In this document: one piece after another, positions 4,019 through 62,565 of the stretch
Numbering within the stretch: position 1 is the stretch's first letter
Layout of the letters: each line of letters opens with the position of its first letter
Source of the DNA: Proteromonas lacertae
Taxonomy: Eukaryota
Direction: 5' to 3'
Assembly: GCA_002245135.1 (NCBI GenBank)
Contig: NGBS01000622.1
Location: 1 to 62,565, forward strand
Length of the DNA stretch: 62,565 nucleotides
The notes under the pieces: generated by a model
Told to the model about the DNA's origin: nothing
The model's input: the letters and a program-made list of their open reading frames with translations, nothing else
The model's database searches: none
Program-made: the position numbers and the translations under genes

Positions 4019-5565
4019 ATGACTTCGCTGCTAGACTCCGAAGAATTAGCAGGTTTATCAGAAGAGCAGAAGGTATATTTATTCAATCGAATTACATAGA
4101 TAATGATACAATCAACTTTAAAAGGCCTTCAAGCAGAGTTTCAATGTTTTGCGCAAAAACATATTGAAGATCAGGTATTATTGTTTTTATTTATAAACAG
4201 ATTGAAACAATTAAAAATACATATCCTGACATACCGGACGAGGTTGCAAAAATAGCTATTAAATTATCCGAAGGGGATGAATTCAAGGCATTAGAACGGT
4301 TAGGAAATGAAAAGGATTTCAGAGAACAGTGTGAAGAGAAATATAAAGGAGAAAAGGTAGAACAAGAAAGCCAGCAACCTCCACAAATAACCAGAGCTCG
4401 AGTACCAGTACTAAAAGATGAAGAATATGTCTCAAATGAACAAAGTGATGATGATGATTATGATTGTCCAGCTTATCACATGCGAAGAAAGAAAGCAAAA
4501 AAGCCTCAAGATAAAACCAATGAGGCAGACTATGAATATGATTCAGATAATAGTGCACACAAGAAACGAAGGACAGTTCCAAGATTGACATTAAATGAAG
4601 CTTTATCAAAGTTAGAAGAATTAGATAGTACTCATCGAGTATTTGAACATAAAGATAATATGTTTTCACAACAAAATGCTGATGACAAAACTAATTCTTC
4701 GTCTTCTTCACCAGTAAGTGAAAAGAATGTAGATTCTGCAGAAGTTAAAAGTGAGAATACAGAAGAATCAGCTGTTACTAATATTCAACCAAAGAAAGGT
4801 GGAAAAAAGAAGATCAATTTACCAAAAACTGTGAAACGTTATAATAGTCAAGAATTAAGACAGTTGGGATGGAGTGATGCTAGAATTAGAGCGTATAACA
4901 ACAAAGATAAGAATCCAAATGCATATTATTATAGATTCAATGATCCAGGCATTCCACAAGCAACAGGACCATGGACAGAAGAAGAGAAACGAACATTTAT
5001 GAACAATATCAAACAGAGAGGTGTTAATTATGAATGGGGAACTTTCTCAATGAATATACCAGGAAGAGTAGGATATCAATGCAGTAACTATTATAGAGCA
5101 TTAATACAGAAAGGAGAGATAGAGGATAAGAATTATTACTTTGAAAATGGTAAATTGAAATTCAAATTTCATTCTCAAGAAAAAGATAAAGATGGTGAAG
5201 CTGGAACTCCAAAGCCAAAGAAAAACAGGCAGAGAAGAAGAACCACTAGAGCTGGAGATACAGAACTATATCTTAGTGAAGAAGATGAAAATGATGATAA
5301 AAATGAGAATATAGATACAAATGAAAATATAAACCTTTTACCTGATATGATTGATCCTGTTACTTGTACAGCTATGGTACAACCTGCAATTTCACCATAC
5401 GGACATGTCATGGATTATCAGTCTTGGTTGAAAGTATTAATGAAAGAACCGAAGAATATTTGTCCTTTCACTAAGAAAAAATTGACTCATAGGATGCTTG
5501 TAAAATTGACAATTGATAATATTGAAGATTACAGAAGTAAAATAATTAAAGACAATAAACTGTAA
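4019..5565 (+). CDS. Myb/SANT-domain protein with N-terminal CUE/UBA-like region and C-terminal U-box-like domain
   Basis: ATG at 4019 and two short introns. IKNTYPDIPDEVAKIAIKLSEGDEFKALERL is CUE/UBA-like, GPWTEEEKRTF...WGTFSMNIPGRVGYQCSNYY is Myb, and DPVTCTAMVQPAISPYGHVMD...CPFTKKKL is U-box-like. Confidence 0.8.
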
Positions 5566-8572: not shown

Positions 8573-11111
8573 CTAATTGGAATTAGATATTGCTTGTCTT
8601 CTTTGTTGAGCTTTCAACACTATTTCTTCATTCTTCTTTTCAGCAGCTTTGTTTGTACTTGTCGAAATCTTTCCATTGTTTTGATCAATTATTAAAGGTC
8701 TTGTCCAAGCATCTCCAGCTTTAGGTTTTTGATTCTTAAAATCTCTAAAACATTCTACCCATCTCTTCGCTGTTTCTACACTATTTTCACCTTCTACTTT
8801 CATCACAATCTTTCTCTCTTTATCACCTGCTTCAAATGCTTTGATTGAAGAATCTCGAACTTTCAATATCAATGTAAATTCACTACTTCCATCTTTATAT
8901 TCAATTCCATTATAACAATCTAATGGAATACTTTGTTTCTCATCAATATATACTTTACCATAATAACTAGGAACCATCGAATCATAGATTCTCAATACAG
9001 CTGGTTCAAAATATAATACACAATATCTTCGCTGCCATTTTCCAACTACTCGATCTCGACCACTCTTTAATAAATAACCTTCCATTATTACTTCATAACT
9101 AAATGGTTTATAAATATCATCATCACTTATCTCATTTTCTTGTTTGATCTTTTCAATTGGAATTACTGTCTCCATTATCTTTTCACTCTTTTCTAAATCT
9201 TTCTTGTTTGTTTTACTTCCACCACTACTTGATAATGATACTACTAATATTGCTACGATTATTCCGATTATTAATACAGCTCCAATACATATTATTAATA
9301 TCACCCACCAATATTCTTCTGCCCAAGGCTTGGAATCGTTGCTAGATGGAGGTGTATCTACTGATTCAGATGAGAAATAATCATCAGCTTTTCTAATATC
9401 TAATTCAATTGCTTTTTCAGTTACTTTTTTTACAGCATCTCTTACATTTGGTAACGAAACTAACTGCTGTAATTTTTCACCTAGATGAATTGTTAATAAT
9501 TCAACTGGAACTTCTAACGTATCTGGTTTTGAATTATCATTACTTGGTCCTATTATTGATAAAAGCACATTACCAAATTGAATTGGATCAATTTCTCCAT
9601 CATCGAATAGTGTATCCCATTCAAAATCTTCACCTAGTATTCTATTACTTTCACCTTGACTGTTGTTATAATTCTCTACATATGTAAACTCTTTCTTAAT
9701 CATATTACCTCTACTACCATCATCTTTGTATTTATATGGACCTCCAATAAAAATAGCATTTATCATATCATCAAACTCTGCTTTTAAGTCATCATATTCT
9801 TTATCACTACCTCCTTCAAATTTATAAGTTACTTTTATTTTTGTGCAGTATTCTTTTTCTTCAGTTCTTCCTCCACAACATAATCCTTGAGGATCAAAAT
9901 TATACTTTTCATTACATACTCTTGAGTAATAGTATTTATATCTCCTTCACCTGATATATTAACTTTTATTGGATATATACCTGTTTTGTCTTGGTTATTA
10001 TAGTTGATATATAAATCATTCCATGTAAATACAGATTTAAATTCTTTTGGTTGAACTTTTGTTTTAATATCACCTTCTGTGATGTTATATCCTTCTTCTT
10101 TTATATCATCAATTTTCATTCTTTTAGTATTCAAAAATTCTTTTAAATCTTCTTCTGTATAACCTGTGATTGATGGATATTCTAATCCTATGACAATCTT
10201 AAATGATTCTGATTCTTTGACAGTTTTTGGTACTCTTGATAACAAGTTACTAATGCCATTTGGTTTATAATCTACAACTTCTACTGTAAAGGATGTTGAA
10301 CCATTTTTATACCCTTCAGCACTGCAATTGATGTAACAAGTAGTAGTTTTTAACTCTGCACTTGTTTTGACTGTAAAATTACCTTCTTCTGTATGGCTAA
10401 TTATATCATCAGTAGTATTACAATCAAACCCGAAATATGTAATTTCATTATCATCATTTGCTTTTATTTTTAATGGATTTATATTCTTTTCAACTCCACT
10501 TTTAATGAATATATATGAATCTCTTTCATATGGACATTTAAGTTCAGTTTCTTGTGTAGTTGGTGTTGATCCTGTAGCTGTGGCTTCTAATGTTGTTGTA
10601 CTTTCTGGTGTTGTTGATGGATGAGTTGTTTCTGGTTCATCTCCTTTATCAGTACCTGTATCTCCATCATCTCCACCAGATGTTGTTGTTGTTGCTTCTG
10701 GAGTTGTCTTTCCAGTATCATTTGGTTCAGTTGTTGCTCCAGTAGATTCGGTTGTTGGAGCTGTAGATCCTGTTGTAGCTGGTGTTGTTGTTACATCAGC
10801 TGTTGAACTAGTACTTCCTGAAGGTTCATCATCTGATCCTGTACCATCCAATTCTCTTTCTTCATCAATATTAATACGTTTCTTAACAATTAAATCTTCA
10901 CCTTCATTTGAATTACTATGTAAAAGTAGAGATGCGTGTTTATACTCAACTATTTTTGAGGAAGGTCCATGATTCACTACTTTTAAAGGATTTTTATTCT
11001 GATCTTTTCTTAGATCACTAAAGCCACTTACGCAAACGAAGATTAGCGCAAATATGCATACTATGATATAAATAATGTATTTATACTATAGTAAATGTTT
11101 AATTTACTCAT
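8573..11111 (-). CDS. Type I membrane protein: signal peptide, Thr-rich mucin-like stalk, single TM helix, cytoplasmic PH domain
   Basis: Spliced N-terminus MSKLNIYYICIFALIFVCVSG; T/P/E-rich tract; TM WWVILIICIGAVLIIGIIVAILVV; PH motifs MEGYLLKSG...KWQRRYCVL...AKRWVECF. ORFs 9835..10977 and 8573..9766 join by a frameshift near 9905. Confidence 0.75.
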
Positions 11112-11459: not shown

Positions 11460-12917
11460 TTAATACTTCCCTTCTTTCTGTATCTGTTCAATTTTGGCAT
11501 CATAGAGATTTAACATTGTAGTTATCCACTCTTGCAAAGCACCAATACAACGACTATACTGGTTCACATCATTCACATCAATATTCTTAACAGCATTTCT
11601 TATATTTTCTAAAATTGGAGCATCATAAGCAGTCATATGTTCTTCAATATCAAATCTTGAAAATTCAATAACCAAAGAATAACCATAGAAATTCTTAAGA
11701 TAATTCCACTGACTCATTTCAGTTATATTCATATCAAACTCTTCTTCATTAATATGATCTGTCAAGTATAAACCACACATTAATATCTTTAATGGACCAG
11801 GTCTAGGCATCTTATCATACCTTCTAATCTCAGCAAATTGTGATCTCAATGATAAAATAGTTTTTACAGCATATCTCACTCTTCTTTTTAAAGTACTCAT
11901 TCTTCTAGCTAAATCATCACTTGGACTATCTTCATCCATCGGAAATTCACCATCAAACGACTATATTTTTAGTAATATAATACAAAATATATATACAAAT
12001 GAAGCACTATTTCTTCTAGAAGTCTTCAATAATTGCATTTGATAATCTGCAGTTTGATCAGACAAATCTTCAATCTTTTGTCTTGTTTCATTAATTTCTT
12101 TTTCCTTTTTCGCATTTTCAGTTTCTATATCTTTTGCTCTTACTCTCAGCGATGTAATTTTTTGACCAATTAATCTCACTTTCTCATTTCTATCTCTCAA
12201 CTCCTTTTGAAGTTCTTTTTCCATATTATCCTTCTCTCTCAAGTTCTGACGGAATTCTTCTAATTGTTTCTTTAAGACTTTATTATCTTTTGAAGCTTCA
12301 CTTAATTGATTATCTTTCTTCATTATTTGTTCTTTTAAATTAAGTATACGACTTTTATCATTACGAAGGAAGTTCAATTTTGATTCTAAATCTTCGTTTT
12401 TCTTTCTAAAATCGTTGATTTTCTCTTGTAACAACTTTACTCTTTCTTTTTGAGCTGCAATTTCTCTCTCTTTGTGATGAGTTCTACAATAATTCCATTT
12501 CTTTATTAATTCATCTAATTGACCTTTTAAACGAGTTATTGTTTTAATATCTACCAATATTTCTCTTTGTAACTGTGACTTTTCTGCATTTAAGGATTTA
12601 ATCACTATTTTGTTTTCTTTTAATGCATCATTTAATGATTTCATATCATCTTGTTGATTTTCTATTATTTGTACTTTCTCACTAAGAGCTAAAGCGTTTT
12701 CTTTACGTTTCACTTCCATTTCTTTCTTATATTGCGCTATTGTCTCATTCACTTGCTCTAGTTCATTTATTACTATATCTTTCTGTGATCTTCCATCCTG
12801 AAAAGCTTCATGTTTCGATTCATTCTCTTTTCTTATCTTATCAATTTCTTCTTGGAGTATGCCGGTCTTTTTAATTTCTTCGTTATATTTATATTCGAAT
12901 GTGTCCTGATTAGACAT
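11460..12917 (-). CDS. Coiled-coil protein with C-terminal dynein-MTBD-like domain (family member 1)
   Basis: ORFs 11961..12917 and 11460..11939 join in frame over a 36-nt GT..AG intron (11961-11996). Heptad rod, WNYCRTHH motif, and C-terminal AEIRRYDKMP...WNYLKNF...RFD...YSRCIGALQEW. Confidence 0.8.
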
Positions 12918-13033
12918 CCTACAGCAAAATATAAAAAAAAATCTGTTAGTCCTGAAACGACTCTAATTTTAGAATTTATTCCAAAAATAAAAAATTAATA
13001 TATATAAAGATTAGACATATATAGACTATATTC

Positions 13034-14569
13034 TTATTCATCATCATCGTCAGTTTTTAATTTCAAAGGTGAATGATAATCAGGACCAAAACGAGAAACA
13101 GGTTTAGCAATCATTGGTCTTTCTTTACCTTCTCTTTCTAACTGTTCTACCTTCGCATCATACAACATAAGCATAGTCTGCATCCACTCTTGTAAAGCAC
13201 CAATACAACGACTGTACTGATTAACATCATCAATATCAATATGAGCCATAGCTGTTCTAATATTCTCTATAATCGGAATATCATAGTCACTTAAATGTTC
13301 TTCAATATCAAATCTTGAAAATTCAATAACCAAAGAATAACCATAGAAATTCTTAAGATAATTCCATTGTACTATCTCTGTGATTTCCATTCCAAATTCT
13401 TCTGAGCTAATATGATCTGTCAAGTATAAACCACACATTAATATCTTCAAAGGTCCAACTCTAGGCATCTTATCATACCTTCTAATCTCAGCAAATTGTG
13501 ATCTCAATGATAATATTGTTTTTACTGCATATCTTACTCTTCGCTTTAAAGTGCTCATTCTTCTATAGAAATCATCTTCTTGTTCTTCTTCATTCTCTAT
13601 ATCTGCACCTTCAAATGAGAAACTGTTACTACCTCCTGCACCATTACTTGTACTTCCTCGTCTTGATGTTGGTGGTTTTGGAATTTGATCTTTTACATCT
13701 TCCAGTCTCTTGTTTTCTTCGTCTAATTTAGAAGTTTGCTCTGCTAATAATCGATCTTTTTCATCTCTTTCTTGCTCTAATTCTTTTAATTTGTCTTTTA
13801 ATCCTACAATACGTTTACCAATTGATTCTATTCTTTCGCCTTTATCTCTTATTTCTTTTTGAAGATCAGATTGGAATAAATCCTTTAATCTGATATTTTC
13901 TCTCACTGAATTTAATTGATTTCTTAATTGTTGGTTCTGTTTATTTATATCACTGTAAGCACCTTCTTTGGCTCTTAATTGATTCTTTAAATCTAATAAT
14001 TCAGGATCTTCATTTTGAACTCTATCACATTCACGTTTTATATCATCATGTTGATCTTGTAAATTTTCTAATTCTTCTTCTAAACCTGCTACTTCTGCTC
14101 TCTGTGCAGCTATTTCTTGTTCATTATGGTGAGTTAAACAATACTTCCATTTTTTGAGGTATTCTTCTATTTGTTGCTTTAAACGATCAATTTCTTTTTG
14201 ATGTACACGGATTTCTTGGAGTAATTTCTCTTTTTCGGATTTAAACTTCTTGATTGTGGTCTTATCCTCTTTAGCTCTTGCTGTTAATTCTGAAATTTCA
14301 TTTGCTTGTTTTTCTATTGTTTGTTCTTTATTGGCCATGTTCACTTCGAAATCTTCTAATTCTTTCTCACATTGTTGAATATATTCATTATGTTTATTGA
14401 TTCTATTTTCTTTTGTTTTTCTAAGCTCTTCCCTTGAGGATTGATTGCCATCAACAATACCTTCAAACCTTTTTGAGAAATCTTTCAGCATTTTAAGCTG
14501 TTTTTCAAGTGAATTATTTACCTGAAGTGCTTCTTTATACTTCCAACCATAAATTTCATCAAAATCCAT
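13034..14569 (-). CDS. Coiled-coil protein with C-terminal dynein-MTBD-like domain (family member 2, tandem paralog of member 1)
   Basis: Intronless 511-aa ORF; WKYCLTHH motif; C-terminal domain nearly identical to member 1. Confidence 0.85.
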   Translation of the reverse strand: MDFDEIYGWKYKEALQVNNSLEKQLKMLKDFSKRFEGIVDGNQSSREELRKTKENRINKHNEYIQQCEKELEDFEVNMANKEQTIEKQANEISELTARAKEDKTTIKKFKSEKEKLLQEIRVHQKEIDRLKQQIEEYLKKWKYCLTHHNEQEIAAQRAEVAGLEEELENLQDQHDDIKRECDRVQNEDPELLDLKNQLRAKEGAYSDINKQNQQLRNQLNSVRENIRLKDLFQSDLQKEIRDKGERIESIGKRIVGLKDKLKELEQERDEKDRLLAEQTSKLDEENKRLEDVKDQIPKPPTSRRGSTSNGAGGSNSFSFEGADIENEEEQEDDFYRRMSTLKRRVRYAVKTILSLRSQFAEIRRYDKMPRVGPLKILMCGLYLTDHISSEEFGMEITEIVQWNYLKNFYGYSLVIEFSRFDIEEHLSDYDIPIIENIRTAMAHIDIDDVNQYSRCIGALQEWMQTMLMLYDAKVEQLEREGKERPMIAKPVSRFGPDYHSPLKLKTDDDDE

Positions 14570-14590
14570 TTTCTCAACTAAAAATAAGTT

Positions 14591-14597
14591 CGGCTTG
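14591..14597. promoter_or_regulatory. CGGCTTG motif in the 48-bp divergent spacer (example of a recurring promoter-proximal motif)
   Basis: The same heptamer occurs at 2823, 30065 and 49152, each within about 60 nt of a start codon. Confidence 0.45.
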
Positions 14598-14617
14598 TTT
14601 CATTTTAATTTTGTATA

Positions 14618-15376
14618 ATGTCATTTAAAAAGGTAGGTAAATCAAAAATACACAAAGAAAGATCTCAACCTGAAGCAAGACAGCGATTGGGATTCTTGGA
14701 AAAACATAAAGACTATACAGCTCGTGCTAAAGCCTATCATGTCAAGAAACAATTTCTACAGAACTTAATGCTTAAAGCATCACTCAGAAATCCAGATGAA
14801 TTCTATTGCAAGATGATTTCAATATCAAAAGTATTTCTATAGATAAATATTGTTATTTGAATAGCAACGAAATGGAGAGACTACTGAAGAAGATAAAGAA
14901 AAAGTTAAAAAAGCAAAACTTCAAGATTATGAGTTTTTAACATCAAAGAAACAGGAGAATATGAAAAAAGCAGAAAAACTTCAATCAACTTTTCATATTT
15001 TACCAAATGCAAAGCCAAAACACACAATTTTCCTCGATGATGAAGAACAAGTACAGAATTTTGATGCTGCGAGTATTTTGACACAGAACCTGAGTTAGTA
15101 TCAAGAACATTCAACAGAATTAGAAAAGATGATTTGAAGAAGAATATATTTATTGGTAATACAGATATAGATACATTAAAACAGATTCAAATAGGTCAAA
15201 ACAAAACAAAAGAAGAATTGAATGAATATCAGACAAAAACTAAAGAAATTAAACGAATTATTGATCATGTCCAAAGCCAGAGGAATTTAATGAGAAAAGG
15301 TAAATATATCAAAGTATCAGAAGGTGAAAATGGAGAAGCACCGGTTTATAAATGGAAAAAACAAAGATCAAAATAA
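14618..15376 (+). CDS. UTP11: U3 snoRNP/SSU processome protein Utp11
   Basis: HKERSQPEARQRLGFLEKHKDYTARAKAY...RNPDEFY and C-terminal PVYKWKKQRSK; one intron near 14831-14864; apparent frameshift near 15070. Confidence 0.93.
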
Positions 15377-15438
15377 TTAAACAAAAAAATAATAATAAAA
15401 ATCGTAATTTCTTATGTTTCATAACTCTTTTAGTTTAA

Positions 15439-17505
15439 TTAATCACTGTCAGAATCACTACTACTACTATCACTATTCTTTTTCTTCTTATTATTATTTT
15501 CATCATTATCATCTTCTTCATCATCATCATTATCACTTCCTTTCTTTTTGTCAGGTATTTTATCAATATCATTCTCACTATCAGAATCATCTTTATCATC
15601 TTCACTATCACTACTCTCACTATTACTATGATCTTGTAATAAATCTAAAGGTCCATTATAATTATTCAAAATTTCTTCATCTTCTTTATCTATTGGTTTC
15701 TCACTCACTGCATTGGATTCATCTACTTTGATAGTAAATGGGATTTCTTGATCTAAACCTCTATAACATGATGGTTTTACATATAATATAAAATTATATA
15801 ATCCTGGTCTTGGTGGAGCTGGGAATCTAATATCTACTGTAAACTCTCTTTCTTGATTCTTGGCGAATTCAAATCCAATTATTACACCTATTTTCTCTTG
15901 ATGCATTGTTTTCTTCTTTATATTGTCAATCATATTGACAATAGTGCTTTGTGTTATCAATAAATATATTTTTTCTTTAATTGGTAGAGGATATGATAAT
16001 GAATAGGCTGGTCCAATTGAGTCTTCATTTTCTTCTAAATTCTTTCTAGTTATTGTGACACTACAAGTGACTAAATCCATTGGAATAATAATATCTTCAC
16101 CACCAACATTTGGATGGATTTTAACTTCATACTTTGGGAATATTTTACATGATTTGTAGATATCAATTCTTTGTTCTTCAGTTAAATATTTCAATCCTTT
16201 TTTCTCTTCACTAAAATAAATAATATAATAAATTATATAATATATACTCAGGTAAACACAAATATTCCAACAATCCTTTTACACCTTTTTTACCTTCCAC
16301 AATATGTTTTATTTCATCATCACCTAAATATGGAAATTGTTTAAATTCTGAATCCTTAGGACTTAATCCTTGCATCATACATTGATAGAATGTAATAATT
16401 GTATTAACTACTGAATATATATGATTGGCTCTACATTGTGGATGAAATACCATTCCAATCATATTCTCTAATAGTGCTGGTGCTTTTTGTAATATAAATT
16501 GTAAATCTTCCATATCATTCTCATTTAAATTAGGTAATCTGTTCATATATGCATGAATTAATATTAATGTCTTTAAACCTCTATATCCTACTGTAGATAA
16601 ATTCTCTAATTTAGATGGATCTGTATGCTGATATAAATCACCAGGTTTATGCATTTTATTCTCTTTGATCATTTGATTGTACATTTCACGAAGATGTTGT
16701 TGCTCTCCACTTCTTATTTTGATATTTTTTCCATCTACAAATTCAGAAGATAGTGAAAATAATTCAACTATTCCTCTAAATGGAGTGTTTGGAAAAAGAA
16801 ATTCACAATATAATATAAGAGTTTTATTTAATATTTCTTCTTCACCAGATACATCTTTGGTAGATTGATAACAAGAATATACCAAGCCAGGGATAATTAC
16901 CAATAAAAATATCATATAAAATAAAACGGCTAGATTCTGATTCTTTTGTTCAGATAACCATTTTGGTAAACCCATCGATATTTTGAATTCTTGTGGTCCA
17001 TCTGGATTGCCATATTTCTCCCAATTCTCTTTAGCTAATGGATCTGTTAAAGCATCATAAGCTTTTGAAATGATGATGAATTTGTTTTCATTCCCAGGAT
17101 TTTTATCTGGATGGTACAACAAACTGAGTTTACGGTATGCCTTTTTAATTTCTCTATCGGATGCTCCTGGTTCTACACCTAAGATTTCATAGGGATCAAA
17201 ACCTTTTAATTCATTTTGAGTTTGTAGGTTTGATACTGTATTCACTAATATTGCAAATATTGCAATATATATTACAAAATGTATAGAAAAGCATTTAGTA
17301 CACAAAGTGTTGGTAAATGTCTTCTTTTCAAGTATTTTTGTAGTTTTAGCCTTTCAGCTTCTGTTCTTGCATTCTCAACAACAGTATTTCTTCTTACTGC
17401 TTTGTAACATCTCCATATTACAAATAAAGTTGCTGGAATGAAATAAATCACTAGACAAGTGAATATGAAATATGAAAATGCTGAAGAATCGTATTCTAGA
17501 GCCAT
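15439..17505 (-). CDS. SEC63: ER translocon J-protein Sec63
   Basis: [11 protein letters not shown]-terminus, TM helices, J domain (FDPYEILGV...YHPDKNP...YGNPDGP), Sec63/Brl domain, SCYRGLD, acidic tail; intron near 16211-16247; frameshift near 17300. Confidence 0.93.
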
Positions 17506-17624
17506 TTAAGAAAAAAATTAGAAATGGAATAAGAAACGAATATTTTTTTATTTTATTCCCAAAATTTCATTTACATGAATAATAGCATTAAAAATATAAA
17601 AATTATAATTAAGCGATAATAATA

Positions 17625-18823
17625 CTATGACATTAACTCCTTCTCATTCATAGCTGTATCATACAAACCAATTAATCCATTTAACCAATCATATATTGCG
17701 CCAATCACTGATGAAGCAGAGTAAACTTCCTTACTATTACATTTCTGAATTTGTTCTCTTATTATACCTATCTTCTCTTTCACTTCGTCATCATCAAGCT
17801 TATCCATGATGTTATACTCAGATATTTCAACCACCAACGAATATTTAAAGAAATTTCTAATATAATTCCATTGAGCTAGTGTCAAGGAACTACTATTCAC
17901 ATCAACTTCATGATTCAATAAGTGTAAACAACATATGATGGTAATAATTGCATGGTTGTTTTGGAATAGTATCATATCTTCTAATTTCCTGAAATTGTGT
18001 TTTTCTATCCACTACAGCCTTTACAGCCTCTATTTAATTAAAAATAAAAAAAAAAATCAATACTATCCACATTCTTCTTAGCTTTTTGTAATTCATTCAC
18101 TTTATGTTTATCTGATTCCTCACCTGCTTTCCTCATTAATTCATCTGTCTGATCTGCATAATCTTGTAATTTGGCTGTCAAATCTTCAATAATTGCTTGA
18201 AGATTATCAATTGTTGAATCTTTCTCTTGATTCTCTCCTTTTAATCTTTCTATTTCTTCGTTTAATTCCTTTACTTTTCCTTCTAATGCAGAATCATGCA
18301 TTGTAGATGGTGGTGGAGGTATTTTTGATGGAGATGAAGCTGCAGATTGTGATGATCCATCTAATGATGAGTGATTTGCAACACAAAATCTTACTTTCTC
18401 TTCACAAAGTTCATACCTCTTCTGCAATGCTTCAAACTCTTTTTGGAGATTGTTATATTTTATTGTAGTTGTATTTAAATCACTTTCTAACAATTCATTC
18501 TTTTGTTGAGTTATTTTTACTTCTTCCTGCATATTACCTATATCAGCAATATATTTCTCTAATTTCAATTGGTTTTTACTCAATTCTATTTGATATTCTT
18601 TAGTCTTTGTCTCTAAATCCTTTTGATGCTTATCATTCTCTAAGATAAGGTCTGACAATTGTTTTGATAACTTCAATTCTTTATCTTGTCCAACTTTCAA
18701 TAATTCTTCTGATTTAGAATTCTTCGCTTTTAAAAAAACTATTTGTCCTTGCAATTCACCATTCTTTTGAATGGAATCACAGAACTTTACTTCATACAAG
18801 TCTTCCGTTGTGTTTAAAGGCAT
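17625..18823 (-). CDS. Coiled-coil protein with C-terminal dynein-MTBD-like domain (family member 3, divergent)
   Basis: Rod with EKVRFCVANH; intron near 18030-18063; then AVKAVVDRKTQFQEIRRYDTIP, a 1-nt frameshift, and NHAIITIICCLHLL...WNYIRNFFKYSLVVEISEYNI...SSVIGAIYDWL..LYD, homologous to members 1 and 2. Confidence 0.75.
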
Positions 18824-19024
18824 TTTCTTTATTATAAGATATTCTTAGATTTTATGAATTTTCAATGCTTTTCTTCAGAAATAAATTATTCGATCTATTA
18901 ATATGATTGATTATCTATACAAAGCCCTATTTAAATAGTGTGTCTCTAGTAAATCTATAGAGATACAGTGTATAACCGTAATAGATAAATATATAAAGAA
19001 AAGATTTTTTAATATTTTTATCAA

Positions 19025-21442
19025 ATGGCTGATGTACCTATTGATGTTTTAAGAATGTCGTATGATCAGAGCTTAGAGAAACAAAAAGCTCTGCAACAAG
19101 AACATAAGGCTATGCAAGACGAATTGACGAAGTGTAAGAATGTGTTGTCAGAATTTAAAGAAAAGGTGGATACTTATCAGCAGCAAATTAAAGAAGTTCA
19201 AGAAAGCAGTAGACAGAAACAAGGTGAGTTAGAAGAAAAACTAGCTACTTCTGGAGCTTTAATGAAAGAAAAAGATATAACCATCGAAACAGAAGGGCAA
19301 AGAAATACATTGCTCGATGAAAAGATTAGTGTATTAGAAAGAAACGCACAAATGCTTAATGAAACAATAGAAGAGAAGAATTTAATAATCCAACAGAATA
19401 AGGACGAATTAAAGCGATTAGATGATATAAATGCAGAATTTGAAGAAAAAGTTACATTTTGTATAGAAACTCACACTCCTCAAATAAAAGAGTTAGAAGA
19501 TAAAATTGCTGAATTAACAAAACAATTATCATCTGCACAGAATGATACATCTTCTAAAGAATTAATAGAATCAATGCAAAAACAAAATAATGATTTAGCT
19601 AAAGCAAAGAAAGAATTAGAATCTAAAGTGAAAGAATTAGAAGGTAATAACAAGACATTGAACAACGAATTATCAAAGTCTCAAGCTAACAATAATGAGC
19701 TAACAAATGCACAAAAAGAATTGGAAAACAAATTAAACAAAAGTGAAGAAAATAACAAAATATTAGAGAATGAATTAAAGACAATGAAAGATAATAATCA
19801 AAATATGGCACAATCAAAGAATCAATTGGATACAAAATTAAAGGAATTAGAAACTAAATCCAAGTTATTAGAAACTAAAAACAATGATTTAGAATCTAAA
19901 TTAAATCAATCAAATCAAAAAGTGAATGAATTAAAGAGCCAATATGAGGAAATTCAAAAACAATCCAAATCTAATGATAACACAATGAATGCAGAGTTGA
20001 ATAAAGTTAAGAAAGAATTAAATGATATGAAAGAGAAGTATACAAAATTAGATGATGAATTTAAAAAGAGTCAAAATGCTAATAGTCAGTTGCAAAATAC
20101 AGTTAATGTGAATAAGAACCAATTAGATGATTTGAAGAAGAAATTAGATAAATCGAATGAAGATATGGCTAAATTGAACAAAACAATTGCCAATTTGAAT
20201 ACTATTATAAAAGGAAAAGATAAAGAGATTAATGACTTAAAGAATGAATTATCAAAATTGAAAGATGAAAATATGAAGTTGAATAACAAATTGAGAGATT
20301 TAAATGGCAAATTAAAAGAATCTCAAAGCAAACCAAAAGAAGATACTAACATAGCCGTTTCATTTGCGCCAATGAAAGATAAAAAGATCGCTAAAGAATG
20401 GACTTGGTTGAATGAATTTGAAAATAACCCAGAAACTAAAGGAAAGTTACTATTATCAGAGTTAAAAGGTCATAAGAGTGGTGCTAGTAGTTGTGTTTTC
20501 TCAACAGATTGTACAATGATTGCTACAATGGCTAAAGATGGTGGCATTATTATCCACAATATTACTCATTCATCTATCTCTAATGAGTCAAGTTCTTCAC
20601 GTTATAACATCACATGTCCTGATGATTATGTTTGTGCTACAACATTTACTGGTGATGATAAGTATCTAGTATGTGGTTTAGGTGTTAGTAAATGTGTTAA
20701 TATTTACTTTATTCCACCATTTGGTAGTAGTAATAAACAACCTGAATTGTGGAAGACATTTAAAACTGATGCTAAAGAACCATTATTAGGTATTTCTGTC
20801 TATCACAGTGGTGAAAAAATGGCAATAGTAACTTGTGAAATTGGTAATACAGCTTTATTAGTGTATGATGTTAATGGTAAAGTCGTTGATAAACAAGTGA
20901 ATAGAACTCAAAAAGTGTTTTATTCAATGACATCATCACCATATTCTCGTTTTATTGGATTTTCTGGCAGTTCCAAAGATGCATTTGTATTTGAACCAAA
21001 ACATAAAGTTAATGGTGATTTTACTAACTTATCAAGAGTATTACAAGTCTTACATTCTGATAGTATTATTGGTTTAGGTATTGGTAACAAATGCGATCAA
21101 ATTATAACAATATCCAAAGATGAAACTATGAAATTATGGGCGATTGATGTGAGATATTTTAATGCTAGTTTGATCAAGAATTATCCATGCAGATTGAATG
21201 TAAGTTATGCTATGTTGAGTGAAGAGAATTTGTGTATTATATTGATATGCGAGAATGATATTTACTTCATTCATTGTGCTAATGGTGAGATTATTACAAC
21301 AATTGAGAATCCACATAACTGTAAGATTATTTTCAGTTGTATTGCTGGTAATGGACGTGCTATTGCGACAATTGGTGAGAAAGATAATGATATTAAGATT
21401 TGGATGATTCCTCGTGGAATGAAATTCACAGATAATGTATAA
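19025..21442 (+). CDS. Coiled-coil protein (same N-terminal rod family) fused to a C-terminal WD40 propeller, TBL2-like
   Basis: 805-aa ORF: about 440 aa of heptads with EKVTFCIETH, then ELKGH...FSTD...ATMAKDG, SKDETMKLWAIDVRY and IKIW WD repeats. Confidence 0.8.
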   Translation: MADVPIDVLRMSYDQSLEKQKALQQEHKAMQDELTKCKNVLSEFKEKVDTYQQQIKEVQESSRQKQGELEEKLATSGALMKEKDITIETEGQRNTLLDEKISVLERNAQMLNETIEEKNLIIQQNKDELKRLDDINAEFEEKVTFCIETHTPQIKELEDKIAELTKQLSSAQNDTSSKELIESMQKQNNDLAKAKKELESKVKELEGNNKTLNNELSKSQANNNELTNAQKELENKLNKSEENNKILENELKTMKDNNQNMAQSKNQLDTKLKELETKSKLLETKNNDLESKLNQSNQKVNELKSQYEEIQKQSKSNDNTMNAELNKVKKELNDMKEKYTKLDDEFKKSQNANSQLQNTVNVNKNQLDDLKKKLDKSNEDMAKLNKTIANLNTIIKGKDKEINDLKNELSKLKDENMKLNNKLRDLNGKLKESQSKPKEDTNIAVSFAPMKDKKIAKEWTWLNEFENNPETKGKLLLSELKGHKSGASSCVFSTDCTMIATMAKDGGIIIHNITHSSISNESSSSRYNITCPDDYVCATTFTGDDKYLVCGLGVSKCVNIYFIPPFGSSNKQPELWKTFKTDAKEPLLGISVYHSGEKMAIVTCEIGNTALLVYDVNGKVVDKQVNRTQKVFYSMTSSPYSRFIGFSGSSKDAFVFEPKHKVNGDFTNLSRVLQVLHSDSIIGLGIGNKCDQIITISKDETMKLWAIDVRYFNASLIKNYPCRLNVSYAMLSEENLCIILICENDIYFIHCANGEIITTIENPHNCKIIFSCIAGNGRAIATIGEKDNDIKIWMIPRGMKFTDNV

Positions 21443-21570: not shown

Positions 21571-22439
21571 ATGGGTAGATATAGTATTATTATTCATGTT
21601 GCGTTTTTGTCATTTTTTGTATATTTTTTATGGCTTCACTTGACAAACAAATGTGACATGTCAAAGAATTTGATGGATTTGATTGATGTAGTATCAGAAG
21701 TATTAGATAAGCATCATATTATTTGTTATCTATGTTGGGGTATGTATATTTGGTTTCTATGTATTTAGGCTCTTTACTTGGTTATATTAGAAGTAACGAC
21801 CTACCACCACAAGATTATGATGTAGATATTGTAATGAATCCAAACGATTATGATAGAATTATGGCTTTGAAAGATGAATTCAAAGAAAGAGGATATACAC
21901 TCTATGGAAAGAATGATATATTGCCGTTTTTTTTTTATAAGAAGAAAATGACGATAATATCATTCAGGTTATATAATGATAAAACTCACTATTTTTTGGA
22001 ATTCTTTGAAGGATATAAAGTTCCTGCAAAAGGAGTATATATAATTATTATATTATATTGTTTATATATGTTTATATAGATTGAATATATTATGAAAAGA
22101 TATCCAAAAGTAGAAGTACCAACTAATTATCGAGTGAATGATACATATGTATGTACAGGTAGACGAGAAACTTTTAAATCAACTGAATTTTGTTTCTATT
22201 ATGATGATATATATCCATTGAGGAGAGTAAAAGCGTTTAAAGAACAATATTCGATGTTTATACCTAATAAACCACACAATATATTGAAGCAAGTTTATGG
22301 AAGTACTTATATGATTCCACAGACAAAGGGGTATAAATCTGTAGTGTGTTATACAAAGCCAAAATACACACTCTCTGTAATAACTGCAATATATTTATTG
22401 TTAAACAGTTTTTTCCTACTCTTTACAATGAGAATTTAA
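21571..22439 (+). CDS. LicD/fukutin-family nucleotidyltransferase-fold protein
   Basis: Spliced YLCWG|SLLGYIRSNDLPPQDYDVDI and IYPLRRV...IPNKPHNILKQVYG..YM.P; N- and C-terminal TM segments; two introns. Confidence 0.85.
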
Positions 22440-24531: not shown

Positions 24532-25642
24532 TTATTTATTTGTTGAAAGATCAATATTACCGTCAAATAAAGGATATCTATGTACTGTCACACAACTACC
24601 TATTGATTTCATACAAGAGGAATAGTCATCTGTTTTTAAGCATCTTCCACTCCACAACATACTCAACAACCCAAAAGTGCTCTGATTGGTAATTATAAAA
24701 TATGTACTGTGAATCAGTAATAGCAACTCTCTCAATGAAGTATCATCAAACATATTTTTAAGATAATGTTTTTTCTTAGAAGATAATTTAACATTGGTGT
24801 TGTACTGAGTATTTTTAATTCTTATTTTATTTAAAATATTACTATCATCACCTAATATAATCCACTTTGTATTTGTCTTATTTATACTGTAATGAACTGC
24901 TTCTTCCTCAAACAAATTCTTTTCATTTTCTGTTAAAAATTTTCTAGAATCTTTGAAGTCACCGTTTCCTGTTCTTATGTGAATACCAACAACATTTGTG
25001 TATATGTAGAACATGTTTTTGTACTTGTTGTATATTCTAAAGTATTTATCTTTGAGATGTATAACTTTGTTTAAAATATTGTATTGCATCTCTAAATATA
25101 GCTTTCTAGGATTATTTTCATTGACATTTGATATTAACCTTCGCTCATACAATATTTGATTGTTATTTTTGTTTGAAGCTATATGAAAAGATATATCACA
25201 CCATAAATTACTAAAACAAAGGTAACTGTCATTATTTGATAGGATATCTTCAACTTCTTGGCGACTCATTTTACATAAATCGACCCTAATGCAAAAATGA
25301 AAAGAAGAATCAACAAAATTAGGGAAGGGAGTAGCGAAGTAGGAATCAAACTCATCCCACCATAATACTATCAATATTATAATAATGATTATACTTTTAG
25401 GCAGGTGATTAAACACCAAAGACATAATAATCACTTCATTGACAGATTTAATTCTATTCCCAATTCCTCCGCTCGTATATTCATAGTAGGATCGATTATG
25501 TGACTGAATGCACCAAGAATGATATTGACTAGGAATAGAACTACACATTCTTTTATAATTCAAGTATTTATTAGGAGCACAGAGGATAAGATAGTATCAC
25601 TGATATGATAAATAGTACAACATAGGTTATATATTTGTTCAT
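24532..25642 (-). CDS. GT-B fucosyltransferase-like glycosyltransferase (GT11/GT23/NodZ-like motifs)
   Basis: GGIGNRI, VGIHIRTGNGD, ILGDD and STFG motifs; N-terminal anchor MNKYITYVVLFIISVIL is joined by a frameshift. Confidence 0.7.
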
Positions 25643-26113
25643 AATAACTCTATAAAAGAACAACGCTTAACACTTTTTGAAAATGTTTGATGATGGTTTG
25701 AATCAAAAAATCTTTGTTCAAACATTTTTATTGTGGATTGTATGAGTGTAGCAATCTTGATTACAATCAAAAATGATAATTTAAGATGAATTTTGTAATG
25801 TAATAAGCTGTTTGTGCTGTGTAATTTATTTTTCAGATTAATATAATTTGTCAGTTGTCTTGGCAAATAAAAATATAAAAAGAAATTAAACGAAAGACAC
25901 GTTTGCATAGTATCAAAACAGCATATCAACCTCAAAATACTTCATTTCTTAATATCTCTAAGTTTAAACTATCGCTACACCTCTATAAAAATAGTATCAT
26001 TATAATAAAAACTATAAAGATAGAATTATCTATTTAACTAAACAGAAATCTATAAAAGCATAAAAAGCAGTTTAATTTTAAGGGGGTAAATAATTAAGAA
26101 CATTTAAAATAGG

Positions 26114-26836
26114 TTGGTTTATATACTACAAAAAATGTGTAATTACTATGTGCTAGGTATTATAATGGTTGTATTAGCGTTACCTTTACTATCATTTTTA
26201 ATTTTGTCACCCTCAAAGTGTGTATGCAAGGAAGAATTACACAAAAAAGGGATTTCAAACAGCAAAAGTCAATTTAACCAAGATATAACTATGTACTTTA
26301 AACATTTTATGAATAAAACGAATGGTGTATTCGTTGAAATAGGCGCATTTGACGGAGTGTCAATTAGTAACACCTATTTCTTTGAAAAGAACTTTAATTG
26401 GCATGGAATACTTATCGAAGGAGGTGAACGTAATTGTAAATTGTTGTTTGGCAATGCAAAAAAAAGAAGTAATTCAAGATTAGTTTGTTCTCCTATTTGT
26501 CAGTCAGAGTACATAAGCTTTAAAGAAGGAGGCACTGGAGGAATGTTAGATCACAGTAATAAACAACAGAAAAGAATAAAATGCAATACTCTTTCAAATA
26601 TCACACAATTCTTCAACATTAAACATATTGATTTCTTTTCATTAGATGTAGAAGGAAGCGAATTAGAAGTATTACAGACTTTTGACTTCAGAGTTACAGT
26701 TTCTCATTGGTTAATTGAATGGAATCATTTGAGTGATAAAATAAAGAGTGGAATACAAACGTTATTAGGTAGTCATGGTTATGTAAAATCAAATGAATAT
26801 ATTTCTGAAATTGATGTACTATTTAATCACACCTAA
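26114..26836 (+). CDS. FkbM-family (Methyltransf_21) methyltransferase with N-terminal membrane anchor
   Basis: GVFVEIGAFDG..ISNT.FFE..FNW.GILIE and IDFFSLDVEGSEL.VL; intronless; real ATG probably at about 26135. Confidence 0.88.
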   Translation: MVYILQKMCNYYVLGIIMVVLALPLLSFLILSPSKCVCKEELHKKGISNSKSQFNQDITMYFKHFMNKTNGVFVEIGAFDGVSISNTYFFEKNFNWHGILIEGGERNCKLLFGNAKKRSNSRLVCSPICQSEYISFKEGGTGGMLDHSNKQQKRIKCNTLSNITQFFNIKHIDFFSLDVEGSELEVLQTFDFRVTVSHWLIEWNHLSDKIKSGIQTLLGSHGYVKSNEYISEIDVLFNHT

Positions 26837-26927
26837 ATTGTTAATTAAATATATTTGTATGTGATAAAGGTTTAAAATATAAAATATTTAATACTTATAA
26901 ATAAAAAGACTGATATTATTACATAAA

Positions 26928-27677
26928 CTATACATAACATTCACCTTTCTGCATATAATGTCCAAAAGGATATGACATTAACAACAAATTGTAATGTTTT
27001 AAAATCAACCTTTTCTCCAATTCTGAATCTTCACGTCTATACCACTTCCAACTACTATCATATTTATTATTCATTAATATTTCTCTTTTAGCTGAAAGCC
27101 AAGCATTATGAATTGGTAAGTCTTTATCAAAATAGTAACAGCAATGTATTGCTTTACTATTTCTATTATTGTAATATTGTGAATATATAAAACTGTAATT
27201 ATAAGGTAGAATGTATTGAGTAATGTTATTAACATCGAATATATCAGTATCCAACATGGCTCGCTGTTCAACGTAAGTATGCAATGTAATATCTACATCT
27301 GGAATTGTTGTAAAGATTTTTATCACCTCCTGAATTGCATATTTTGAAAGAAAGTCGTCTATATCAAATATAGTTATTATTTCACACGTACTACAATCTA
27401 TTCCATAGTTTCTATTATCCGCTTGATTATGCCTTCCAGTACGATAAAAAAGGTTTATGGTTGTGTTGTCATTTTTACTCAGTGTGGTATTTTTATCATT
27501 TTCAGAATTACTAATTACTACAATTACTTCTTTTGGCTTCATTATCGTTCTTTCTAACATAAACAAAAACTGTTTGCTGCAAGAGTGCCAATCTTTCAGA
27601 GTAGATGCTGATATCAATGATACACATGGTAAACAATACACACTACTTATAAATAAATAGATAAAGAAGAAAAACAT
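26928..27677 (-). CDS. GT2-like (GT-A fold) glycosyltransferase
   Basis: Signal peptide; PKEVIVV, NRNYGI...EIITIFDIDD (DxD) and EDS motifs; intronless. Confidence 0.7.
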   Translation of the reverse strand: MFFFFIYLFISSVYCLPCVSLISASTLKDWHSCSKQFLFMLERTIMKPKEVIVVISNSENDKNTTLSKNDNTTINLFYRTGRHNQADNRNYGIDCSTCEIITIFDIDDFLSKYAIQEVIKIFTTIPDVDITLHTYVEQRAMLDTDIFDVNNITQYILPYNYSFIYSQYYNNRNSKAIHCCYYFDKDLPIHNAWLSAKREILMNNKYDSSWKWYRREDSELEKRLILKHYNLLLMSYPFGHYMQKGECYV

Positions 27678-27729
27678 AAAAATATACTTACTACTGTAAC
27701 GAATATATTTTTATTACTGAAAATTGTTC

Positions 27730-28904: not shown

Positions 28905-28994
28905 TTGTATAATAATTTAAACTAATTCTGTTTGCATTTGATATTTTGTGTTAGTATGTAACGACATAAATAACATTTGTTTGAGCTTGATTTT

Positions 28995-29938
28995 ATGTTT
29001 TTGATTTTTGTCTGGTTAGCTAACTTTATTCTTTTATTTTATATATTTTTTAAAACTGCATATATGTTTAATCATTTAGAAAAACAGAGTAAATTGGATG
29101 CTTGTTTGGATTTTAATATTTCTCGTGTGAATAGTTACGTCATTTATAATTCGCTTATAATTCATACAATCGCATATGATGAAAGAATTCCTGGTTATAG
29201 GATATTAGGGACTGGAAAAGTGGATAATTATGTCTATTTTGATTGTTTGTTTTTCAAATCATATAAAAATGCGAAATGCACAGCGTATATTCAGAAAATT
29301 AACAGTAAAATGAAGGATGGGTTTGTCATATATGTTATAATGAAAGATATTAGTTTTAAACCTAAGTATGTGATGTTAAATGAGTATTGTTTACCTCTAC
29401 CACAACCTGTATCAATTAAAAAGCCACTTTATGATTATACACTCTGTGTTATTCCAGATACAACTGAAAAAGAAGAAAATTATAAAAGAGAATGGATTAA
29501 TCATAATAGAAGAATTGGAATTGAAAAGATTGTTATTTATAATTACCAAAATTCAGTTTTTATAAACACTAATGATAGTATGTTAGATATAATAGATGTT
29601 CAGGAGGGAAGTTCAACAGATATGATAATGAATGATTGTTTGTACAGATATAGAGCAATGTCCAAGTCAATTTTGTTTATGAAAATGAAAGAGGTGATAA
29701 TATTATTAAAAACTAATATGGAGATGAAATTGAGCAATTTTATTAAACAAAAAGATAGAGAATCATATGATATGATGTATTTGTGTAAATGTAGAACAGT
29801 AGAATAACACAAAGAATGTAGATTTTGATAAGATATCAAAACTGAAGCTAAAATGTGAAAATAAATATTCACACTCCTTCTTAATAGTAAATAACCCATT
29901 GAAATTCAATTATATAACACAGAAGGGTTATTTCGGTG
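28995..29938 (+). CDS. GT92-like glycosyltransferase, degenerate or frameshifted
   Basis: Type II anchor; REWINHNRRIGIEKIVIYN and MNDCLYRYR are GT92-like. The expected DxDE reads MKMKE, and the frame is broken near 29790. 3' end uncertain. Confidence 0.5.
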
Positions 29939-52538: not shown

Positions 52539-55500
52539 ATGGATTTAGACACACCAGCTGAGATTTTACTCTATTCATATCAAGAAGAACTTAAAGCTCG
52601 TCAAGAACTACAAGATACAGTAGAGAATCTTAAGAGTGATAACAAGAACTTGAAATTGTTTTTCGAACATATCAAGCTAAACAACGAACAACTATTATCT
52701 CAACAATTAGACTTAAAGAATCTCAATAGCAAAATAAAGAAAGATTTAAAGTCATGTAAAGTTGAAAATCAACTATTAAAAGAGTTCAACAAAAGAGAAA
52801 AGGAAGATTTCGAGGAAAAATATCAGTTGTTACAAGAAAAAATGATTGATGTAGAAAATGAGAATAGTGTGCTTAAAATGAAGGATGAAGAAAATCAAAA
52901 TGAAATACAAAGGCTTAATGAAGAAATTGAAAGGTTAAAAAACCTGAACAACGATTTAGAAAATAGATTACGAAAATTAATAAAGCAAAATGCCAAACAG
53001 AAGGAAGATTTCAGCAAAATTCAGACATTTTTACGAAATAAGCTCGATAATCAAAAGAAAGAGTTGAATGAAGATAAAAGTAAAGCAAAGGAATTACAAA
53101 AGAAAATAGATGATAAAGATGAGACAATTGTTAGATTAATACAGGAATTAAACGATATAAAGAAAGAACTTGATCCATCTAGCACAGCTGAATTGAGAAA
53201 GAAATTAGATGAATTAAAGAAAGAAGAGAATGATATGGAAGATGATTTAAGAAGAAAGAAAGAGGAATTAATCAAATTAAAATCCTCTCCATCTGTTGAT
53301 CCAGAGAAAATCAGTTTATTAGAAGAAGATATAAAGAATATTGAATCTAAATTATCAAATATAAAAGATAAATTGAATGAGAATGAGTTGAAGTTAGAAG
53401 AATTAGAGAATAACAAACCTGAAAATGAAGAAGAGATGAAAGAATATAAAGAAAAGCAACAAGAAATCTTGAAGAATTTACAAGAGATTGAGAAAGAATT
53501 GAATGATATAAAGAATGATGATGTAAATGAAGTTAATAAATCAATAGAGAGATTAAACACAATGAATGAGATAATCGAAGATATGAATAAGAAAGAGCAA
53601 TTGCAAAATGAATTAGAAAATAATGTAAAAGAAATGGATAGTAATTTCAAACAATTAGATGAAGATGATTTCTTAGATGAATGTAAATTATATAATGGTG
53701 AAAATAGAGGTGGTGGTGATGAATCAATGAATAATGGGAATGAGAATGAAATAGAAGATCCAAAGAAACAGAGTTATTTGAATGCTTTAAATGAATTAAA
53801 TGAAGAATTAGAAAGGAAAAGACAAGAATTAGATGATTTAAGAAATGATTTAGAAAGTCTGAAAGAGAAAGAGGAAAAAGAAAATAATGAAGAGATAAAT
53901 AAATTACAGAATCATGGAAAGAGAATTAGAGAATAAAATGCAAGAGATAAAGAGCAACAATGATGAATTGAAGAATTCTTTAAATCAAATAAAGAAGGAA
54001 TTATATGTAAAAATACAGAAACAAATACCTGATAATGAAAATGAGCTGAAAGATTTAATGAAATTGAATGAAGAATTAAAGAAAGAGAATGAAGAATTGA
54101 GTTATAATGAGAATTGCAATCAAGGAATAATAGAAAGAAATCAAGAGAATTTATGTGAAAATGAGACAAAAATGAATGAATTGAAAAGTAAAATAGATGA
54201 TTTAGAGAGTAATTTAAAAGCTTTAGAAGATGAAGAAATAGAAAATATATCAGTTGAAAGTCTAAAGAATTTAGATAAAGAAAACAAAGAGAATGAAGAT
54301 GAATTGAAAGAATTGAAAGATAAAACTTACTGAGATTAAAGATTCAATTGATAATAGTAAAGAATTATTGTTGTTGAAACAGAGTATTTGTGATATGCAT
54401 GATGAATATGATGATTGTAATAGACAATGTGAAAAATTCCGAGAAAAATACAATAAATTAGCATCAAGTAAAACAATAGAAAGTGAAGAACTAACTGATA
54501 TAAATATGGAATTATGTGATATTGAAGGTGATTTAATGAAATTAGATAAAGAAATCGAAAATCAAAATCGTCGTGTTAATTCAATCAATGAAGAAGATAC
54601 TGACAAATGTAAAGAATCAATAAGAATCAATAAAGAGAATGACACATTATTAAGAGATAAATTAAAACAAGTAAAACATAAGTTAGATACATATTCAATC
54701 AATATGGCTGATGTAGAAACTGACACATTGGAATAAACTATTAGATGATACAAATGGTTATTTACAGATGAAAGAAAGAATAATAGAAATAGGAAAAGAG
54801 TTAAATGATGCCATTAAATGAAAATGAATCATTAAAAGATGAGAATGATGTATTAAAGAAAGAAGTAGAAGAAGCATCAGCTAATACTAAAAGATATAAA
54901 ATCCAATCCTGATTATTCATTAGATACAACATTATTGAATGAATATTTGAGTGAAAGAGTTGAAATATTAGAAAATGATTATAATCGAATCAATTCAATA
55001 GCTGATGAAAATGAAAAAGAGATTGAAGAATTAAAGAATAAAAATGACAATAATAATTCAAGTATGAATGAATCAATAAAAGAAATTGAAGAGAAGAATA
55101 AGAATATTCGAGAAGAATTAAAGAAAATTGAAAGTGAATTGAAAGAAGAAAGAAATTTGGCTGATAAATATGAAACTGATCCAAATGCAGGAAGTGATAT
55201 ATTAGTTGATTTACACAGTAAATTGTTGAAGACTGAGAAGAATATAAGAAACTGTGAAAGAGATTTGATGAATGGAAATGAAATTAGTAATTTTGATGAA
55301 ATGGAAACATTGAAAATTCAAGTAGAAGATTTACAGAAATCTTTAGAAAATGCCAAAGATGAGAATGATAAATTGAATTATAAAAGTTTAGAAAGAAGAT
55401 TAAAAGACTTAAAGAATGAAGAAAAGAAATTAGAAAAAGAAATAGGAAGAAATAAGAGAGATTTAAAATCAATAAGTGAAAAAGAAATAGGTAAAAGTGA

Positions 55501-61500: not shown

Positions 61501-62565
61501 AAGAATGAAAATGTAATAAAGCCATAGTAAAACGAATAAAAATCAATTCTTTGAAAATAAAACAAGAAATTGAAGATAATAAGAATAATGTAAAAGAATT
61601 GAACGAATTAGATTTGAATAAAAAAAGACAAGTGCAACAATGAAAGGAATGAATGATTTATCCTTAAAAACATTAAATATTCGAAATCATTTAGATACAG
61701 TTCATAAGATGTTAGATGAAGTTATATAAATGATTTAAATAATTTGAAGAAAGAAGTGATAGTATTGAAAGAGAAAAATGAAAAATTCGAAGAAATGAAA
61801 GAAAAGAAAGAAGAATTAGAGAATAATAATAAAGATATGAGTGAAGAAATAGAAGAAATGAAAAAGAGGATAAAAGAATTAGAAGAAGAGTTAGAAAAGA
61901 CAAAATTAGAAAGAGATGAATATGATAGTGGTTGGAAATGTTGTAAAGAAAATACAAAGAAATTATTGAATGAAATAAATGAATTAAAAAGTAAAGTAAG
62001 TGAATTAGAAGAAGATTGTCAAAGAAAAGAAGAAGAAAGAATTCACCAAAAAGAATTGTATGATAATTTATATAAAGAAATTCAGAAAATGAAGAAAGTA
62101 TTAAAGAAGCCTGAAGTATATGAAACTCCTGAAATCGCTGAATTAAAAAGATGTGTAGGATTGGCTCGTCAAGCTGTAATGAGTGCAAAAGCCTCTTATG
62201 CTGAGATTAGAAAATATGATCAACCACCACCACATAATCCAATGAGAATAATGGGATGTTTCTATTTATTAGGTTATTTACAAAAGCTCAATTTATTAAT
62301 GGTTTAACTTATGAAGGAACAGATATAAAAGTTCCAGAAAAAGATTCTTGGAATAGTTTAAGAACTTATATTGATTATCAATTTGTGAATTCAATGGTGA
62401 AATATGATGTATTAGATGAGAAAAATGAAGATGAGAAAGAAACAATAGAATTAATTCGACATGAACTTCGACAGTATAAAGCTGAAGAAATAAGTCAATA
62501 TTCGAAAGCTTTTACAGTTTCGTACAATTTATTAAATGCCTATTTGATTTATATGATGCAGTAAA
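52539..62565 (+). CDS. Giant (>3,000 aa) acidic coiled-coil protein ending in a dynein-MTBD-like domain (family member 5); broken by many frameshifts, probably runs to the window end
   Basis: Consecutive E/K/N/L-rich ORFs on one strand. The N-terminus DTPAEILLYSYQEEL resembles DVPIDVLRMSYDQSL of the 19025 gene. The C-terminus AEIRKYDQPPP...WNSLRTYIDYQFVNSMVKYD...EISQYSKAF is homologous to members 1-3. Confidence 0.7.

Follow-up and report, generated by a model that had tools for sequence, protein, structure and literature searches.

Why should divergent neighbouring proteins share a coiled-coil rod of exactly the same length, and what does such a rod carry? The question is raised by contig NGBS01000622.1 of Proteromonas lacertae (assembly GCA_002245135.1), the whole 62,565 nucleotides of which (hereafter the window) were analysed. 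Four predicted proteins encoded there, A to D, begin with a rod whose length was described in an earlier note on the sequence as invariant, and a fifth gene, E, belongs to the same family. The main feature of the family, overlooked in that first reading, is a dynein-type microtubule-binding domain (MTBD) at the C-termini. The best reading of the family is that of lineage-specific tethers: the rods would pair as parallel homodimers in register, and all window proteins except D would serve as passive, two-footed microtubule tethers or cross-linkers, with an estimated probability of about 0.58.

The C-terminal domain of about 150 residues is common to A, B, and C once the introns of A and C are taken into account, and E carries one too, whereas the C-terminus of D is a WD40 propeller and not an MTBD-like domain. 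Gene B (13034..14569, minus strand) is a single open reading frame (ORF) of 511 aa comprising the rod, further coil, a low-complexity linker, and the MTBD-like domain (residues 334-473, positions 13570-13151), which was recognized by profile-profile comparison and by PDB sequence search. The ORFs called for A (11961-12917) and C (18038-18823) represent first exons only. On the minus strand, exon 1 of gene A (11997..12917) encodes the shared rod followed by a further coil of about 150 residues, and exon 2 (11460..11960) encodes a short linker and a dynein-MTBD-like domain with 81% identity to that of B. The 36-nt GT-AG intron predicted between them (11961..11996) keeps the frame and yields a protein of 473 aa collinear with B; it is supported by the same VYI read-through at the ends of the called ORFs of three relatives. 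Gene C, also on the minus strand, has a first exon (18064..18823) for the rod, a Ser/Pro linker, and a short coil, a predicted GT-AG intron of 34 nt (18030..18063), and a second exon (17625..18029) for the MTBD-like domain, where the reading frame shifts once within an A-run near 17960, probably through an assembly error. No gaps are needed to align the spliced product with A and B. Gene D (19025..21442, plus strand, 805 aa) encodes the rod, a long coil, and the WD40 propeller. C and D are arranged head-to-head with start codons 201 nt apart (18823-19025), a layout that suggests a promoter in common. On the plus strand between 52539 and 62564, a giant coiled coil of about 3,000 codons is spread over 10 open stretches in three frames, which we infer to be a single gene E; it begins with a rod (52539..53000) of the same cap (Y14) and register and ends with an MTBD-like domain (62128..62564) that contains a frame change near 62283.

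Several comparisons link these domains to dynein. From 119 dynein-motif loci in metagenomes, 21 stalk segments with at least 400 open codons upstream were used, and all five of those checked against Pfam PF12777 matched it. The profile built from the 21 segments ranked the domain of C first and that of E second among 227 window targets. In a profile-profile comparison by hhalign, the family domain was aligned to the dynein stalk over 123 collinear columns (P 1.4e-5, score 42.3), the maxima of the controls being 21.3 in 60 column shuffles and 25.8 in 60 block shuffles. When, independently, a profile of the four family domains was compared blind with 177,635 PDB sequences, cytoplasmic dynein MTBD constructs formed the top three of four rows (E 0.007-0.008). 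The proteins do not appear to be motors themselves: A and B are complete and too short for a dynein heavy chain with its motor ring, and no AAA motor family occurred in the Pfam lists for A-D and two scanned ORFs of E. The C-terminal domain of A, B, C, and E is thus very probably a remote, motorless homologue of the dynein MTBD, as judged from profile-level similarity.

A number of results weigh against this homology. Mean identity of the domains to dyneins is only 13-19%, no PF12777 row was obtained for any domain scanned and the long stalk is absent, queries with single domains or with three domains gave no dynein row, and the fold models are poor (pLDDT 60 and 50). The four domains constitute one long branch separate from the 21 sampled dyneins, with 23-31% identity to one another when A:B is excepted. 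Structural searches with these low-confidence models gave dynein rows that were the highest of 14 in Foldseek (TMq 0.37 and 0.34) and not significant, neither model having a match at E <= 0.001. In VIA, dynein rows at Z 4.6-4.7 were likewise not significant for a model of low confidence; the best values (Z 5.8 and 7.3) indicated no clear winner, and for the second model the first 50 rows did not include a dynein stalk. Searches aimed at relatives were sparse in yield: word-index searches found no relative of B and none of the C-terminal domain, an atlas search with the C-terminal domain scored at most 0.79, and a metagenome scan with it returned 95 pattern matches and no relative.

Does the domain still grip tubulin? 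Six dynein residues forming salt bridges to tubulin are given in the accessible part of PMC7042235, comprising a trio in helix H1 (K3117, E3122, and R3124) together with R3152, R3159, and R3201 on H3 and H6. The H1 motif K/R-x4-E-x-R, equivalent to this trio when contacts are mapped by motif spacing without a printed alignment to the solved protein, is present in all four domains; in the same columns of the 21 dyneins, Glu occurs in 13 and Lys in 19. A basic residue in the middle of H3 is also present in 4/4 domains, and the accessible text of PMC7042235 describes such residues as alternative partners in Dictyostelium dynein. On the negative side, the equivalents of R3152 and R3201 are found in none of the four domains and that of R3159 in one, and the net charge of the domains ranges from -3 to +1. 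The R3201 column contains Lys in only 9 of the 21 dyneins. Taken together, the domain probably binds tubulin as the dynein foot does, and perhaps more weakly than dynein.

At the other end of the proteins, the spacing claimed in the earlier note was reproduced in residues, motifs, and count. The aromatic residue and the Cys lie 133 residues apart in A (Y11 at 12887-12885, C144 at 12488-12486, H148 at 12476-12474; minus strand, WNYCRTHH), B (Y11 at 14539-14537, C144 at 14140-14138, H148 at 14128-14126; minus strand, WKYCLTHH), C (F14 at 18784-18782, C147 at 18385-18383, H151 at 18373-18371; minus strand, VRFCVANH), and D (Y13 at 19061-19063, C146 at 19460-19462, H150 at 19472-19474; plus strand, VTFCIETH). 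The same spacing occurs in five of six database relatives, making 9/10 with A-D included, and CxxxH is found at 25 of 30,193 positions in the window ORFs. A search of 1.84 billion proteins with the rod profile produced 13 hits, five of which are family members related to A (P0016, P0021, and P0028) or to C (P0017 and P0018); the other eight read as generic coils and were dropped. A search with the WD40 part of D added a single orthologue, P0001, and P0002, a 49-aa member of the D cluster, was discarded as unrelated. P0018 with its cluster of nine has a C-like rod up to about offset 124, followed by a proline-rich linker and no CxxxH. The polyproline tract of this cluster (P0029-P0036) varies in length among its nine members. 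In an atlas search, the rod matched only unrelated coiled-coil families, namely generic golgin, centrosomal, and rootletin coils.

Length conservation was examined in eight lineages, that is, the window and database family rods with close orthologues counted once. All eight aligned best with the rest at shift 0 among 61 shifts (offsets 5-125, both end motifs excluded; z 3.1-5.4), at identities of 12-28% with the C:P0018 pair excepted, and ungapped alignment of A-D with the C-terminal motif excluded favoured shift 0 in 6/6 pairs. P0001 and D, 82% identical in the rod, differ by indels of +7, +2, and +1, every one downstream of it. These alignments show a homologous rod of constant net length with one stutter in common, its predicted span being about 20 nm for a rise of 0.15 nm per residue, and the proposal of a fixed-length rod has held up to this extent. 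Some observations weigh against a strict interpretation. The profile used to find relatives favours equal lengths, and the A- and C-like relatives are known from their first ORF only. Pairwise, shift 0 is best in 39/45 pairs over the whole rod and in 36, 29, and 18 of 45 by successive thirds, the last third having the patchiest support, and small compensating gaps with a net length of 0 are placed by MAFFT near the stutter in B and P0028. The total length of the rod therefore appears fixed, and a residue-by-residue register across distant lineages is less sure. Behind the rod, the coil differs widely from subfamily to subfamily: about 150 residues in B as in A, about 290 in D, a linker and fewer than 100 in C, and, provided that E is a single gene, thousands there. 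Within the A-like subfamily, whose members are about 32% identical in this part, the coil past CxxxH is gap-free too as far as residue 298 or so.

The heptad pattern itself is not the simple one that had been proposed. The register fits best when a single stutter of four residues is allowed somewhere from offset 46 to offset 67, which places 209 hydrophobic residues at a and d compared with 156 and 186 for single registers; nineteen uninterrupted heptads were rejected on this basis, and that 133 equals 19 x 7 is coincidental as far as the register is concerned. Hydrophobic residues account for 67% of a positions and 60% of d positions, compared with 11-24% in the other five. With the stutter, the first aromatic falls at a, the Cys at d, and the His at a. 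At the level of heptad assignment, the Cys and His are not predicted to face away from the dimer interface, as they would have to if the earlier note's proposal of an inter-chain Cys2His2 clasp were wrong on this point; both candidate ligands are core-facing, so that a parallel dimer would contain adjacent layers of two Cys and two His. The idea of a clasp stands in this geometric sense and is weakened by CxxxH being optional, retained in only 6/8 lineages and missing in E and the P0018 cluster. In E, the register is kept with Leu at the Cys position (d) and Asn at the His position (a), both of them residues commonly seen at these core positions in parallel coiled-coil dimers. Because E keeps the register without CxxxH, a clasp does not set the rod length. 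Cys and His are scarce in these coils (0.6% and 1.0%). The chances that Cys at d and His at a of both chains form a putative inter-chain zinc site are evenly balanced, and no paper on CxxxH zinc coiled-coil dimers was found in the literature search.

How the rods pair was approached through charges at the helix edges. Net g-e' attraction averaged 4.25-5.0 in eight homo pairs and 1.6-2.1 in 27 hetero pairs, with p values of 0.017-0.061 that span the four stutter positions tried and refer to pairs that are not independent. The pair formed by the products of the head-to-head genes, C:D, is unfavourable (-4 to -5), and A:C scores +2 to +4. Two values weigh against homodimers, as D:E (+6 to +8) equals them and the homo pair of B is neutral (-2 to 0). 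Edge charges thus lean weakly towards homodimers over hetero-oligomers, and, with the heptad pattern considered as well, parallel, in-register homodimers are likely.

On this basis, a mechanism may be outlined for the preferred reading of passive tethers. Two copies of one protein would zip in parallel along the homologous rod, as the heptad pattern and edge charges suggest. Cys and His of both chains may then hold one zinc ion that pins the rod end, only as an accessory stabilizer because E has Leu and Asn instead. The rod could serve as a docking or spacing module common to the family, and the variable coil behind it would set the reach. At the far end, each C-terminal domain would grip a tubulin dimer, so that two motorless feet hold one or two microtubules, and D would present a WD40 head instead of a foot. 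The affinity of the feet would not cycle with ATP because the stalk is reduced to short stubs and there is no AAA ring. An extended form of this scheme, which is possible and at present doubtful, is a modular kit in which a zinc-clasped 20-nm ruler common to the paralogues docks on one scaffold or pairs between paralogues, holds motorless feet or, in the case of D, a WD40 head at defined distances, and replaces motors in tethering.

Other explanations assign a different role to one end of the protein or the other. The C-terminal domain might have come from a dynein foot and lost microtubule binding, which would make the family coiled-coil scaffolds of the centrosome or Golgi type with a protein-binding head. 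The near loss of three of the six salt-bridge positions, the neutral to acidic charge of the domain, the unrelated WD40 head on the same rod in D, and the golgin, centrosomal, and rootletin coils as atlas look-alikes of the rod would all fit; nevertheless, the H1 surface motif is kept in 4/4 domains at such low mutual identity that it is hard to account for without tubulin contact, and this scaffold explanation is considered unlikely. The hetero-oligomer favoured in the earlier note, in which equal-length rods pair between paralogues, possibly as an intermediate-filament (IF)-like polymer with CxxxH as the common clasp, is quite unlikely. It could draw on the net length and stutter region common to the eight lineages, the close head-to-head placement of C and D, and the favourable charges of D:E and A:C, whereas on average the charges favour homo pairs, and those of C:D are unfavourable. 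The filament version fits poorly, as IF rod-end motifs were found in 0/5 window proteins (E over its first 465 residues and C over exon 1) and the Filament family gave no row in their Pfam lists; an IF rod of about 310 residues is segmented by linkers, compared with 133 residues of unbroken coil here. A weak generic hit to a lamin A/C fragment (E 1.4e-4) involved a gapped stretch, and Pfam Rod_CreS on D fell far below the cut-off.

The fixed length might also be no more than the legacy of an inherited, indel-resistant coil, with Cys and His as polar core residues, or a disulfide, setting the register in a metal-free manner. Inheritance would fit the gap-free coil that A-like proteins have past CxxxH, the Asn that E has in place of the His, and a search profile that selects equal lengths. 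It is at odds with the 7-residue indel found downstream in D at high identity, with the wide variation of the downstream coil between subfamilies, and with two rare residues being kept together in 6/8 lineages, and is very unlikely. Motifs of another kind were also considered: loose patterns for the CC1 box and the Spindly motif of dynein-activating adaptors (BicD/Hook/Spindly type) gave one stray match each in A and B, and none was common to the family.

As for the genomic setting, the window has a G+C content of 27%, its introns are short and of the GT-AG type, and its stop codons are standard. Among its genes are cpn60, one of Sec63 type, one for the P-protein of glycine cleavage, one with a Nop domain, and several that resemble glycosyltransferase genes; an exact look-up matched 0/8 window proteins. 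The Sec63-type gene lies between paralogues B and C (14618-17505), presumably with a Utp11-like gene beside it. A cluster of glycosyltransferase-like and LicD-like ORFs (GT2, GT92, FkbM methyltransferase, and LicD) occupies 21723-22439 and 24532-38525, with several unannotated neighbours. Adjacent ORFs at 8573-10977 (minus strand) encode a PH domain, a stretch rich in Thr, and what is probably a transmembrane segment, and they probably belong to one surface protein broken up by introns. The product of 4480-5565 (plus strand) combines a Myb-like domain with a U-box behind it. The Nop58-like gene at 50790-51879 (minus strand) has a frameshift near 51345; because this gene is frameshifted too, indel errors of assembly are the simplest reading of the frame changes in C and E, which could still be pseudogenes.

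The dynein MTBD is the tip of a motor stalk in which ATP-driven sliding of helices switches affinity. If the present interpretation is true, nature would have carried out an experiment on the register and affinity of the domain once uncoupled from the motor, in at least four copies borne by dimeric rods, and the dynein MTBD would be reusable as a microtubule-associated protein. A zinc layer formed by CxxxH at d and a would, if real, be a simple natural example of a metal-pinned coiled coil. According to the available excerpt of PMC12129017, low-GC isolates of Blastocystis-like gut stramenopiles have canonical stops and reduced dyneins and kinesins and have lost cilia genes; if the host is Blastocystis-like, a likeness that the low G+C, introns, stop codons, and gene content of the window may suggest, the family would be a candidate microtubule organizer in a lineage without cilia genes and with few dyneins and kinesins. 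No description of a motorless MTBD on coiled-coil rods was found in the literature searched, most subscription journals being outside its scope; the parts are already known and, as far as this literature shows, their arrangement is new.

Comparison with known systems helps to place the family. IF proteins, lamins, and crescentin are similar in that their long coiled-coil rods contain a stutter and are constrained in length, and differ in end motifs, linker pattern, and rod length. For the candidate clasp, the closest parallel is the CM2 domain of Drosophila Centrosomin, a coiled-coil dimer in which, according to the accessible part of PMC5457487, a zinc ion is bound by a His and a Cys residue. 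As reported there, conservation of this Cys is lower beyond Drosophila, and zinc is helpful and not essential in vivo; the motif of CM2 is HxC at the helix start, whereas that of the rod family is CxxxH at d and a at the end of a 133-residue rod. Centrosomin showed no match to the family proteins in the sequence and Pfam searches, and it is by analogy only that CM2 may serve as a precedent for a His/Cys zinc site of accessory function. The 'MTBD-like' motif of TTLL11, as it appears in the available text of PMC12366701, is a different thing from the family domain. Residues ~1338-1496 of the axonemal chain Xl in PDB 9fqr appeared in both VIA searches (Z 5.8 and 5.9, 13-15% identity), and this chain may be a further non-motor protein with an MTBD-like end. 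Finally, the dynein MTBD itself (PF12777; PDB 6kjo, 6kjn, 6kio, 6rzb, and 3err) matches the family domain collinearly in sequence over the CC1 end, H1-H6, and the CC2 start, with the conserved E-x-K/R of H1, Trp of H3, and S...W of H6. The family domain differs in having neither an AAA ring nor a long antiparallel stalk, its CC2 stopping no more than about 25 residues past H6, and in being carried C-terminally by a coiled-coil protein of its own, unlike the tip of the dynein stalk.

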